From: Rotaria socialis
Taxonomy: Eukaryota
NCBI GenBank assembly: GCA_905331295.1
Contig: CAJNYD010000529.1
Location: forward strand, 62,001 to 93,434
DNA: 31,434 nt
Reading direction: 5' to 3'
The notes under the pieces are model-generated. The model was not told where the DNA came from and did not search any database. It was given only the letters and a program-made list of their open reading frames with translations. Made by a program: the position numbers and the translations under genes. Below, piece by piece: positions 6,635 through 27,948 of the stretch. Positions within the stretch are counted from its first letter, which is position 1, and each line of letters opens with the position of its first letter.

Positions 6635-8824
6635 TTATTTCCGTAGTTTCCGCAGTATATGGCGAAATCCACGATGGGAACCATTTCTTTTTTCACCATT
6701 TAGTGCACTAGCATTATATTCTGATCCTTGTTTAGAGGAGAAACCAGATCTTTGCGTATCATTATAATCACTGTTTACCGCTGCGGCAGTTGGCTTCGAA
6801 TTGATACCGGTCGGAGTTGCTAGACCTGTTCCATACATGTTATGTTCTTTGGGGTAATATTCGGATTGTAGCGGCAATTGTGATCTGCGAGAAAATGCCT
6901 GATCAGACGCAAAAGGAGATGTTTGTGGATCTTCTTCGTTAGCATTTCGCACTGGATTCAATGTATTTTCCTGTGGACAGCTAGCCAAGTGATTAGTGTG
7001 AGAGTTAGGCTGGTATGGTTGAATGTTCTGAGAAATAGATTTTGGTTTCCACTGTTGTCCTTCAAAAACAATCCATTCGCTTAAACACGTAATAAAATCA
7101 TGAGCATAGACATGTTTGATCCATTCCGCGGGTAGGTTTTCATAAGTGTAGTAGGCACCAGCCAGTTGACCATAAATAGCAGCAGTCGTATCTGTGTCAT
7201 CTCCAAGATTGACTGCATTGAGAGCACCTTTTTTGAAGGAGTTTTCATCTGACCAAAACGCCCATAGAGCAGCTTCGAGAGCATTAATAATGTATCCTTT
7301 GCCCCGAATGCCGTCTTTGTAACCACCTTTTTTCTGATAAGATCCTTTAGCGATTCGCATAACTTCTGGATGAAGTGTTTTATTGTTGAACCATTCTTCA
7401 TGTCTTAGATAAAAGTCTTCATGTAGCAATTGCTTTTTCGTTTCTCCATTTAAAGCAGCCACAATCAAGGCACCATAGTAGCGGCAAGCATCATAGGCTT
7501 TTTGGTCACCATGAGTAAGCTTGCCACTGACGCCAGAAAACTCCACTGCCTGAACAGGGTATTTGTAGAAGAAGAGCGGTACAGGTGCGAGTCGCATGAG
7601 TGCTCCATTACCGGCAACACCATCTTTACTGCAATACACATCAAATTTTGAGAGAATCTGAGTATCTGAAAGAAAATCTAATTGATCAATTGGAATTTTA
7701 TCACTGCGAGCAACTATCTGTTGGCGATACTCGAATTCATGTAATGACTGACTGGTGGCCGCACCAATATCAAAACATCGTCCAGTTGAGGACATGTAAC
7801 CATGCCTGTACCACCATTTGTATCGAACTAGTTGATCATACGGGACAAAGTCTTTGCGACATACCAAAGAATTTGCTAAACAAAGAGCCATGGATGTATC
7901 GTCTGTGAACTAAAAAGTATTATATCTTAGGAAAAAGTAGCATTATCATATTCCTTAGTCCCTCACTCTCTTTCTGCGTCTCTCTCTGTTTGTAATTTTC
8001 TAATATTACTAGATTTCTCAAAAAGTGTAGTATCCTCTTAAAAATCCATAAAAAACTGTTTTTACAATAAACAGAAGTTACGCAAACATAAATTAAATCT
8101 AGATAATTTCAAGTAGTGAGAAACAAAATTGATGTTATCGCATGAAAATAATTTTCGTGCCATCATGACTGTTGCTCACTTATATTATAAACTCTTGAAA
8201 TTAATGAGGCAGTCTCATTATAGAAAATGCATGTTATATGTTGACATGTTGAAAAACTCTTATGCTTAAGATGAACATCATTTCTTTCAGATTATCTTTT
8301 TGAACAAATTTGACTAAGGTTTAAAAATTTGTTTTGCGTATCACTGAACGTAAGCCGACTAAGAATCAAATATTCTATACGAAAAACTTCATGATATACC
8401 TGCCCTTTTGCAAGACCCCAAGTTCCTCCACCTTGAAGATCTCGCACTGGGTTTTCTATCATGTATTGCCTCGGTCGGAATTCCACATGTGCACCGAGTG
8501 CATCGCCCAACGCCATACCTATCATTGATCCTTGGACACGGCCTAATATAAGATTGTCGACATATGTAGAAGGATTCTTTAATATGCTACGAAGATGTTC
8601 AGGAGTCATGATTGAGTTGGCACTATTCCGATGATACTGAAGATCGAACCAAGGTTTTTCTAAAAGTGAATATATGTGGTTTTTGAGCAGCTAGAGTTTC
8701 TTAAACGGGAAACGTTTCTTTCGACACAACAATAAACAAAGTATGTTTTAGTCGATCGTAGAACTTGTAAGCTAACCTGTTCGAAATTGGCATGCCGGAT
8801 GAATAGCCGTTGAATTATATGTGT
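6635..8824 (-). CDS. ADP-ribosylglycohydrolase (DraG/ARH family); exons 8824-8777, 8659-8400, 7909-6635, probably continuing upstream into the ART exon
   Basis: Motifs GMALGDALGAHVEF, GQ|FTDDTSMAL (joined by GT-AG intron 8399-7910), GNGALMRLAP, THGD and GDDTDTTAAIYGQLAGA show intact Mg2+-binding acidic residues. Upstream phase-1 exons encode EKPWFDLQYH and TYNSTAIHPACQFRT. Low-complexity C-terminal tail. Confidence 0.9.
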
Positions 8825-10069
8825 CTAAACCAACATAAAAAGCAATGTTCAACGTTAGATTTATGTAATTATATTTTCTAGCAGAGAACGATAATCAAAA
8901 AAATTAAATAATTATCGATCTATTGGTCATATTTTATTCGTCCATATCAACCTGAGCACCTCTGATATATGTTTACTATTGATGTGCTAATATTATTGGA
9001 TGTTTTGAGTGAAAATTTATTTGCTTTCAGATGTAAACTCTGAAGGTACCGCCATTTTGTAAGGTTGTTCTGACAAGAAACTTTTACGTACCGGGCGTTA
9101 CTCTAATATCGTTTGTTTTATTTTATTTTTCTGACTTGAAGTCGGAGTCAGTGTATTATTGTGTTTCTCTGCAACTGTCAATATTTAAAAAAAAAAAGAT
9201 ATTCGTGTATACCATAAAATACGAAACTTTATCCGGCACTCAAAACGATAAAAGAAGCATGAGTTCGCTATTATTAAATGATCACAAGCTAATTATTTTA
9301 TAACTAAAAAGGTATCTTGAATAAAAAACAACTGTCACTAAATTCATTAAAAGGTTGAAATCTAGAGCTTGACTGAACTTTTACCAATTAAAATTCGAAT
9401 ATATAAGAGCTCTAACCTCATTTATAAATCTTTTTGAATACGCTCAGAAACATTGACACTAATTACTTGCTAGAGTTATCATTTGAACAGTTTACGCTAT
9501 TCAAATTTATAAGAATCATAAAATAACTGTCAATGGTCCCTACATCATTACCAATTGTCGATGGCAAACTGGATATTAGTTCATCCACACCGACACCCAG
9601 AACTATACCATTTAGAACATTCACAAATGTATCTCTAGCCATTCAAATTTCAACACAGTCTTTAGAATATTGCAGAACCGTCTGTGGCGTCATAATGCTT
9701 TATATGATTTGAAGTTTTCGATTATTTTCAGGCTGACGACTACATGAGCAGTTGTAGCACTGATGGTGGCCAAGGAATGTTTACAAAGCTGTAAACTCAA
9801 ATACTCTAAGATTTGAATCGGTCTAAGCTACTATGTAGTAGTGCTACCAGATGGTCCAATGTAAAATATTTAACATTAGCCTATCAATATTTTTCTCTGA
9901 TTAGCTGAGAAGGTGCAATATGTGCCAGTATCATTCTGTGCTTAAATTTTACGACTATAGATTTTACGTTAGTTTTGTTATGCATCCTTGACATCTCTGA
10001 ATGATATTCCATCGCAAGTGTCCATGTTCTTATCAATAGGAAACACCTCTCAAGTAAAAATTATCTTAC

Positions 10070-26800: not shown

Positions 26801-27948
26801 TCGAGAAAAAAACGGGCCAAGCAACACTGTCACACGCTGGGCCAAACAGTATTTATTGTTATGAAACGATAACGTGTAGATTTTCGAAAACAACACTTGA
26901 TTTAAGCAAATTAGACTACGTTCACGTAAGTGCTGGCTCGCAAAAAGTACCAATCAGAAATTTAACTATTAACTTCGAAAAAATTCCCGATTTACATCCA
27001 TTATTCGATAGAAATTTCAAGCGAGGGGATGATCCATTTCATAATAGGAAATCGCCTCATCTACGTAGCCGCTCTCCATCTCCCAATATTGCACAATCAA
27101 CTCGCGATATGCCTCCATCGTTTATTCGAAAAGCTGCGAATGCTGTTGCTGGTCTTTTTGGTTATGATGCTGATGATAAAAGCCTTGGTCCCTGCCCCTA
27201 TTCAATCAATTGTCTATTTCAAGGAGAATCGCAACATATGAAAAAATATTCTCATCCTTGTCCATACTCTGAACTTTGCACTAATAAAGAGAAAGAGCCT
27301 AATCTAACACATGAGCCGCACCGAGCAAAACAATGTCCATCTAAGAGTTCTTGTCAAAAACTTCATGATCCTGTTCATCGAGCGCAGTATCGGCATCCAG
27401 GCTACCCTGACTTTCTTATTCCATGTCAAGATGGATCGAGTTGTCATAATAAAACATCGGATCATCGAATAAAGTATTCACATGGTGAGCAAGGAGAAGT
27501 AGTTCGAGATAAAATACGTAGAACGGTATGCCAATTTGGAACAGAATGTCGGAATCAGGATGACAACGATCATTGTTCTAAATATTCACATCCTGGTGAA
27601 AATAGAGTTAAACATGCGCGCAGTTCAAGTCCTGAACGAATCGCTTGTCGCCACGGAAGCGATTGTCGCGACAAAAATGATCGTCAGCATCGATCAAAAT
27701 TTTCACATCCAGATGAACGTGAATCTTCACCTAGTTCAAACTCTGCACGAATCACTTGTCGGCATGGAAGCGACTGTCGCGACAAAAATGATCGTCAACA
27801 TTGCTCAAAATTTTCACATCCGGATGAAGATCGAAATCAAGGTCATAGAGGCTCAAATCAAGATAAAACGCCATGTCGACATGGTAATAAATGTTTTGAT
27901 AAAGATCCTCATCATCGCTCTAAATATTCGCATCCAAACAAAAAATAG
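16999..27948 (+). CDS. ~2309-aa multidomain ADP-ribose protein: RanBP2 ZnF - Ser-rich linker - RRM-like repeats - TIGR02452/DUF2263 PARG macrodomain - 10 PBZ-like fingers - DarT-like ART domain - beta-rich domain - 8 PBZ-like fingers; exons 16999-17052, 18601-18697, 20447-20863, 20918-21478, 22148-27948
   Basis: Splice phases are compatible at every junction (0,1,1,1; 6930 nt). Motifs: WKCRQCGYTNNDSNKSCETC (RanBP2); VLNMANATSPGGGYKRGDGAQEETLFRRS and LVLSALGCGAFRNPP (microbial PARG); repeated C-x5-C-x6-8-H-x5-H(P). The 5.8-kb last exon is solid; exons 1-2 are inferred from splice signals and from conservation in the paralog. Confidence 0.85.
17623..18387. mobile_element. MITE-like element with long TIRs in intron 1 of the large gene
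   Basis: GACTATCCTTTGCTACAAATTGA...CACACTTGTGGAGAATAAAACAAA..CCAATTCTGGTGACC (17623-~17750) is the reverse complement of 18260-18387 (...GGTCACCTGAATTG...TTTGTTTTATTCTCCACAAGTGTG...TCAATTTGCAGCAAAGGATAGCC). TSD not clear. Confidence 0.8.
19650..20154. mobile_element. Possible degenerate non-autonomous TIR element in intron 2
   Basis: GC-richer block bounded by imperfect inverted ends CCCTAGGCTGGCAG / CTTTCAGTCTAGGG (piggyBac-like CCCT start), but the flanks TGAA/GAAA are not a clean TTAA. Confidence 0.3.
27637..27828 (+). repeat. Recent intragenic tandem duplication (111-bp period) of a PBZ finger
   Basis: RI(A/T)CRHGSDCRDKNDRQH(R/C)SKFSHPDE is encoded at 27637 and 27748 with high nucleotide similarity. 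Confidence 0.9.

Follow-up and report, generated by a model that had tools for sequence, protein, structure and literature searches.

We describe here a 31,434-nucleotide stretch of DNA from the bdelloid rotifer Rotaria socialis (GenBank assembly GCA_905331295.1, contig CAJNYD010000529.1, positions 62,001 to 93,434 of the forward strand), hereafter the window, which has 34% GC, bears introns and finds its best protein matches in Rotaria socialis at 99-100%. We focus on two divergent genes, A and B, whose start codons at 10871 (-) and 20434 (+) lie 9.6 kb apart and which are each predicted to combine an ADP-ribose writer with an eraser (Table 1). Gene A probably fuses an ADP-ribosyltransferase (ART) of the R-S-E type with an ADP-ribosylhydrolase (ARH); gene B contains a microbial-type poly(ADP-ribose) glycohydrolase (PARG) and an unnamed domain that is modelled as an ART fold. 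A first-pass annotation had read the region as an ADP-ribosylation island with two divergently oriented writer-eraser pairs. The ARH, the R-S-E ART and the PARG prove to be real (PF03747, PF01129 and PF10021/TIGR02452, respectively), as does the divergent orientation. The coupling is real as well, but it takes the form of fusions within polypeptides, in one frame for B and most likely in one spliced gene for A. P and L numbers below are our handles for proteins and loci.

Table 1. Features of the window (coordinates of the window; E, E-value; aa, amino acids)
Feature	Position	Strand	Basis or details
Gene A, probable single ART-ARH fusion, 794 aa	6635..10871	-	exons 10070-10871, 8777-8824, 8400-8659, 6635-7909
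ARH (DraG/Tri1-type) hydrolase domain of gene A, intron-split	7085..8540	-	GDALG, TDDT, NGALMR, GDDTDT intact
R-S-E-type ART domain of gene A	10194..10856	-	R131, S151, E194; PF01129 E 3.1e-5 (open reading frame 10050-10934)
Calponin-homology (CH; transgelin-like) gene	12714..13990, end approximate	+	CH E 0.005 on exon 13596-13709
hAT-like transposon remnant	14336..15335	+	terminal inverted repeats, 8-bp target-site duplication; PF05699 E 0.12
Foldback / long inverted-repeat element	15735..16590	none	
Gene B, writer-reader-eraser candidate, 2281 aa	20434..27948	+	exons 20434-21478, 22148-27948; splice sites read
RanBP2-type zinc ribbon, then long Ser-rich low-complexity region	20482..20568	+	PF00641 E 0.039; UniRef names of orthologues
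RRM-like region (lead only)	22168..23160	+	Atlas language-model features 0.87, best RRM_PARP14_1/3
Microbial-type PARG macrodomain	23335..24252	+	GGG-X7-QEE intact; PF10021 E 1.2e-20; TIGR02452 108 bits, cut-off 50
Middle PBZ-like C-C-H-H finger array, 6 by pattern	24361..25158	+	PF10283 E 8.3e-9 for whole protein
Unnamed ART-fold domain (by model)	25303..26250	+	H on strand 1 (25339), F on strand 2, invariant E-x-H (26122, 26128)
ConA-like/galectin-like beta-sandwich	26398..26982	+	model pLDDT 87; Foldseek E 1.2e-4 to galectin-8N; VIA Z 11.8 to CBM66
C-terminal PBZ-like finger array, 7 by pattern	27193..27942	+	pattern and profile

Gene B and its family

The PARG and the unnamed domain of gene B lie inside one 1965-codon open frame, and the 2281-residue product has a full-length match in the protein collection (P0271, 100%/99.9%). 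Given this single frame and match, together with the predicted in-frame splicing of gene A, we rejected the reading of four separate genes. A segment of exon 1 (20864-20916) resembles a retained small intron; it is in frame, and database models keep it as coding. The PARG carries the signature defined as GGG-X6-8-QEE (PMC4245714), and its profile matches PARG structures of the T. curvata/D. radiodurans type (E 1e-13). For the RRM-like region ahead of it, Pfam RRM gave no match in gene B or in 25 homologues, except for one xRRM at E 0.13. The beta-sandwich behind the unnamed domain is, from its model, possibly a target-binding module. Its likeness to galectin-8 was set aside as a functional clue because many lectin-like folds tie, with CBM66, levanase, legume lectins and SPRY scoring alike.

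The unnamed domain and 18 aligned members have no match in Pfam, NCBIfam or PADLOC; the best PHROGs match reaches only E 0.013, and the PDB holds no sequence match. A model built from an 84-row alignment (predicted local distance difference test, pLDDT, 92.3; predicted template-modelling score, pTM, 0.90) was used in a fold search with VIA-align over 48,161 chains, and all of the top eight rows are ARTs: SopF (Z 11.4), DarT (10.6 and 10.3), OspC3 (10.2), DarTG (9.8), OspC3 (9.6), CopC (9.5) and DarT1 (9.2). The root-mean-square deviation is 4.2 over 210 aligned positions for SopF, 3.6 over 179 for DarT and 3.6 over 197 for OspC3. Among DarT-type structures, 7omv, 7yk3 and 8baq score Z 10.6, 10.3 and 9.2, respectively; PARP, Tpt1-type and other ART folds fall outside the top eight rows (Tpt1 at Z 7.3). 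Foldseek ranks SopF, DarT1, DarT and OspC3 first, none of them at E <= 0.001, and the Atlas lead is PF12294 at 0.88 (SopF/DUF3626). A BFVD fold search likewise returned nothing at E <= 0.001, its weak rows being phage and giant-virus proteins. By its predicted structure, the unnamed domain is thus an ART fold of the SopF/DarT/OspC neighbourhood. The DarT-like label of the first-pass annotation is right for the fold only, because SopF, DarT and OspC3 are near-tied at 9-13% identity; no family match makes the domain specifically DarT.

Going by order on the predicted strands, the conserved H, F and E-x-H of the domain fall on strand 1, strand 2 and the late catalytic strand. In CopC, an H-F-E triad operates and E325 and H327 are essential (PMC9239266). 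Catalysis in CopC also involves two Asp residues, D172 and D230; the domain has two conserved Asp residues (D1233 and D1270 of the open reading frame) that may or may not be their equivalents. The invariance of these residues suggests that the domain is catalytically active. In comparison with SopF, OspC3-CopC and DarT1-DarT2, it thus shares the fold (Z 9-11), a catalytic Glu on the expected strand and the CopC-like H-F-E with E-x-H; it differs in its 9-13% identity, its lack of a profile match and a helical insert of about 110 residues. OspC and CopC carry ankyrin repeats as their C-terminal domain, and gene B instead has the all-beta ConA-like sandwich.

With the unnamed domain as query, 181 proteins of 1080-3439 aa were found, and the figures that follow come from the 120 listed. 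PF10021 is found in 100 of these and an intact PARG signature in 96, with E-x-H-[LI]-P present in all 120; every named member is bdelloid (Rotaria, Adineta, Didymodactylos). A further search at 220-700 aa gave 30 proteins, many marked partial, and the named ones are again bdelloid. Since six of the listed members are A. vaga chromosome-assembly genes, the family is multi-copy; an A. vaga orthologue of B is I4U23_020114. In metagenome loci of the B family, a PARG lies upstream in 28 of 31, and the remaining three begin <=1.3 kb from a contig end. Judged from sequence, the coupling of predicted writer and eraser within polypeptides is conserved across bdelloids. The PARG is not obligatory in cis, because some members lack PF10021 and some carry an R-S-E ART instead.

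The family also shows other arrangements. Two writer classes occur in one chain, with an R-S-E ART either N-terminal, replacing the PARG, or behind the unnamed ART (P0006, P0007, P0009, P0046, P0037; L005 11789-12463). P0048, P0064, P0066, P0068 and P0047 have N-terminal RING fingers or an Arf-like GTPase domain, for which annotation merges are possible. The unnamed ART is found in tandem copies (L027-L029, 2649-3749 and 9905-11017), and a single contig of 189 kb has two B genes, with about 29 kb between them (L006 and L009).

The nearest relatives of the unnamed domain found outside rotifers are in phage proteins. Viral scans detected it in four contigs, of which two have the same protein sequence. 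Identity reaches 55% over 78 aa (E 7e-24); across the domain it is 33%, and every core motif is kept. In L032, L039 and L043 it forms the C-terminal domain of phage proteins of 1062-1128 aa; one phage protein also has an InPase domain (E 2.5e-46), and another, broken into two frames, follows a gene with a zeta-toxin domain. The neighbouring phage genes resemble those of a head module; by their motifs, we take them to be MuF-like and prohead-protease-like. Large phage polyvalent proteins are packaged in the head and carry several effector-like domains (PMC5512222, PMC9503650). The phage carriers fit this pattern by analogy, with the domain at the C-terminus of large proteins that bear InPase and other effector-like domains; the polyvalent ART described in the relevant part of PMC5512222 is of H-Y-D type, and ours is of H-F-E/E-x-H type. 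L032 (487-3873) and L043 (2030-5218) contain, besides short repeated motifs, a second ART-like stretch of H-G-T/H-I-T type, a likeness judged by eye; this stretch and the repeats are unnamed in Pfam and PHROGs. Plasmids and cultured phages gave matches only at E >= 0.2. A Bacillus plasmid (L034, 2291-2836 and 4149-4940) has a weak match (E 0.7) in a hypothetical protein near an annotated ADP-ribosyltransferase. Overall, a horizontal origin of the unnamed domain is likely.

Gene A, a probable fusion of ART and ARH

All three introns of gene A are GT-AG, its 794 codons are in frame without a stop, and its product aligns gap-free over 789 aa with P0287 of R. magnacalcarata (88.7% identity). The ARH profile PF03747 matches the 6635-7909 exon at E 1.4e-54 and the 8400-8659 exon at E 5.4e-6. 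For the ARH of the orthologue P0287, the closest solved structures are a Thermus-type protein (2cwc, E 1e-49) and Tri1 (6dre, E 1e-46), with human ARH3 at E 3e-13. ART and ARH also stand in one predicted gene model in P0287, in two paralogues of R. sp. Silwood2 (P0315 and P0330) and in A. steineri (P0178 and P0358), and A. vaga g40158 carries Gene Ontology (GO) terms for both (PMC11258130). The protein collection contains neither an ART-only nor an ARH-only reading of the window (3 of 3 absent). Gene A is thus probably one spliced ART-ARH fusion gene.

An alternative is that gene predictors have joined separate ART and ARH genes, with the ART decaying. Some models of R. magnacalcarata and Silwood2 are split, those of Silwood1 have no ART, the first intron is 1245 nucleotides long, and ART identity drops to 33-55% where the ARH core stays at 72-76%. 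On the other hand, the donor site lies just before the end of the ART frame, at the same place in Silwood2; exon 2 contains the conserved N-terminal motif of the ARH but lacks its own in-frame ATG; and the ART-ARH order recurs in two genera. We therefore think it improbable that A is two genes, and prefer the single spliced fusion.

The first-pass annotation had also likened the two loci to the classic bacterial cognate pairings ART/ARH (Tre1/Tri1, DraT/DraG) and DarT/macrodomain. For gene A the likeness is limited to an R-S-E ART with an ARH that resembles Tri1 more than it does human ARH3. First of all, A is probably one spliced gene, and its ARH scores below the NCBIfam cut-offs when scored on its last exon only (184.6 bits against 490 for the Tri1 model, 77.5 against 337 for DraG). 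Second, the E-x-E loop is the mark of arginine-specific ARTs. The gene A ART has N two residues before the catalytic Glu, so that the first Glu of E-x-E is absent; the position reads N-D-E in the window and P0287, Q-D-E in P0330, D-N-E in P0178/P0358 and E-D-E in P0315 only, one of the six fusion sequences compared. Third, conservation across fusion sequences is 72-95% for the ARH core and 33-90% for the ART. Because E-x-E occurs in one of six sequences while the ART diverges fast, it is doubtful that the two form an arginine-specific cognate pair. Gene A is likely, on these alignments, an active hydrolase that carries a faster-changing and perhaps weakened ART. The comparison fails for gene B too, where the partner of the ART is a DUF2263 PARG and not a TARG1-like DarG or NADAR.

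Surroundings of the two genes and the question of an island

Between A and B lie the CH gene, the hAT-like remnant, the foldback element and a dispersed repeat, largely as first described, the label transgelin being given for an N-terminal likeness. The repeat (16678-17892) has a second copy at 30299-31434 (97% identity over 639 nucleotides and 76% over a further 514), and one part of it is inverted at 18279-18335. Outside the pair are a SIX1/2-type homeobox gene (242-1229, +; SIX1_SD at E 1e-35 and a homeodomain), a single-exon RD3-like gene (4267-4965, +; PF14473 at E 7e-11), which by accession adjoins gene A in R. magnacalcarata as well, and the 3' end, with SH3, of an alpha-1,6-fucosyltransferase (FUT8)-like gene (28835-29700, -).

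A and B could be kept together under selection and co-regulated as an ADP-ribosylation or defence island, a cluster of the kind that the first-pass annotation had inferred. Just one host gene and transposons separate them, and under uniform placement an ARH gene that close is expected at 0.004 per B gene. Against this, the flanking genes are ordinary (SIX, RD3-like, FUT8), and two proxies for synteny lend no support. The first is accession adjacency within 100 numbers: none of 39 gene-B accessions (R. magnacalcarata 2, Silwood2 8, Silwood1 12, A. steineri 17) lies beside an A-type (ART-ARH or ARH) accession, the nearest being 601 away, at a sensitivity that is partial. As controls, split halves are 3-18 apart (7/7), and the adjacency of RD3 and A is detected in 2/4. 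The test is weak because the lists are partial, the contigs short and the A-type genes maybe paralogues. The second is gene content: none of the 31 metagenome loci of the B family, which form 14 groups and span about 189 kb, has an ARH or a free-standing ART. Four of the 31 have an R-S-E ART; it follows the unnamed domain at a distance of 0.7 kb and shares its strand, an arrangement like that of the fused P0037. Furthermore, in A. vaga 24 h after fungal attack, ART terms are enriched among genes that go down (19 of 431), not up, in a tested subset that may be restricted (PMC11258130).

Chance, on the other hand, is plausible because both families are large, as had been anticipated: by GO, A. 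vaga has 431 ART and 58 ARH genes (PMC11258130). Assuming uniform placement, about 60,000 gene models and 6-24 B genes, the number expected per genome within two genes of a B gene is 0.2-0.8 for ART or ARH, 0.02-0.09 for ARH and <=0.01 for a fusion gene, in an estimate for which the class was chosen post hoc and foreign genes cluster. With so low an expectation for ARH, chance adjacency is plausible and not proven. Taken together, selection for an island seems to us very unlikely; A and B are likely together by chance, and the island itself is probably ordinary.

Gene B as a candidate single-chain writer, reader and eraser

We favour, with slight preference, the interpretation that the window holds one long fusion (B) and a probable spliced fusion (A), each a predicted writer with an eraser, that B is PARP14-like, and that the two are adjacent by chance. 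PARP14 unites writing, reading and erasing in a single polypeptide (PMC10499325). Like it, B is a large animal protein with an RRM-like N-terminus (as a lead), a hydrolytic macrodomain and an ART domain. Unlike it, B has a microbial DUF2263 PARG as its eraser, PBZ-like fingers as its readers and a writer that is not a PARP domain; no PARP match was found by sequence or among the top fold rows, and no KH or WWE match. In such a chain, the RRM-like and PBZ-like modules would dock on nucleic acid and ADP-ribose chains, the ART would attach ADP-ribose taken from NAD+, the lectin-like domain that follows it would help to choose the target, and the PARG would remove ribose-linked ADP-ribose. Docking, writing, reading and erasing could thus set the net mark within a single chain.

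What the mark would be depends on the partner. DarT ADP-ribosylates T or G in single-stranded DNA. Its marks are removed by DarG, a TARG1-like macrodomain, or by NADAR (PMC8120803, PMC10789625), and gene B has a TIGR02452/DUF2263 PARG in their stead. Microbial PARGs cleave the bonds between riboses and undo the ADP-ribosylation of RNA at its 2'-OH (PMC11833690). Should this PARG be the cognate eraser, we thus infer an O-linked mark, on RNA 2'-OH or an ADP-ribose chain end, and not a DarT base mark. Alternatively, the ART may modify a protein as SopF and OspC do, with the lectin-like domain as the substrate selector and PARG-PBZ as an independent, non-cognate module that clears poly(ADP-ribose). 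SopF is the top fold match, OspC3 and CopC share the E-x-H, and a chassis of PARG and PBZ has been described in A. vaga (PMC4245714). The ART and beta-sandwich also persist in members without the PARG, and those with an R-S-E ART in its place somewhat favour this alternative. Conversely, PARG and ART occur together, with motifs intact, in 96 of the 120 long homologues listed, and no mapping was obtained for the Asp pair on which riboxanation depends. We regard a protein-modifying B as possible but rather unlikely.

Several observations weigh against the interpretation of two fusions with a PARP14-like B. First of all, every fusion model of gene A is a prediction, and some annotations split the gene into two models (P0285/P0151, P0313/P0153). 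Second, SopF and OspC modify proteins and fold alone does not fix the substrate, and the RRM identity of the N-terminal region is a lead below the Atlas threshold (0.87). Third, a PF10021 match is missing in 20 of the 120 listed homologues, some of them fragments, and at least two lineages have an R-S-E ART in the place of the PARG (P0006/7/9; P0046, sister to the PARG-bearing P0031). Fourth, with uniform placement only 0.02-0.09 ARH neighbours of B genes are expected per genome. Finally, as regards origin, a long branch parts the bdelloid from the phage domains in a tree of 42 bdelloid-type rows (hand-picked from 130) and 3 phage rows, which gives no donor or direction, and a narrow-pattern scan of prokaryote genomes gave six matches, none confirmed as relatives.

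Gene B is nonetheless the find worth pursuing, as a PARP14-like writer-reader-eraser candidate assembled from microbial-type catalytic domains. A bacterial-type PARG followed by PBZ repeats is in print for A. vaga (PMC4245714); it very likely belongs to the same family as B, and the passages that describe it name only the PBZ repeats and no internal ART or lectin-like domain. In the open-licence literature searched on bdelloid and rotifer ADP-ribosylation, SopF/OspC and PARG/PBZ, neither the internal ART domain nor an ART-ARH fusion was found described, and likewise neither the lectin-like domain of B nor its phage link. The ART of gene B would thus have been hidden in a protein that for ten years had been described just as a PARG bearing PBZ fingers.

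If true, this would be a third structural class of ADP-ribose writer in animals, beside PARPs and R-S-E ARTs, in a conserved bdelloid family linked to phage head-packaged effectors. A bolder reading, which we hold to be possible but rather unlikely, is that bdelloids took a hitherto unrecognised phage-effector-type ART into an RRM-PARG-PBZ chassis, giving rise to multi-copy PARP14 analogues that would reversibly ADP-ribosylate RNA or ADP-ribose chains, alongside the independent ART-ARH fusion; animals would then have a writer-eraser system whose catalytic parts are microbial. Single-chain writer-eraser enzymes are, to our knowledge, rare, and B would provide a handle on a linkage erased by a microbial PARG in an animal noted for its tolerance of DNA damage and its foreign genes.

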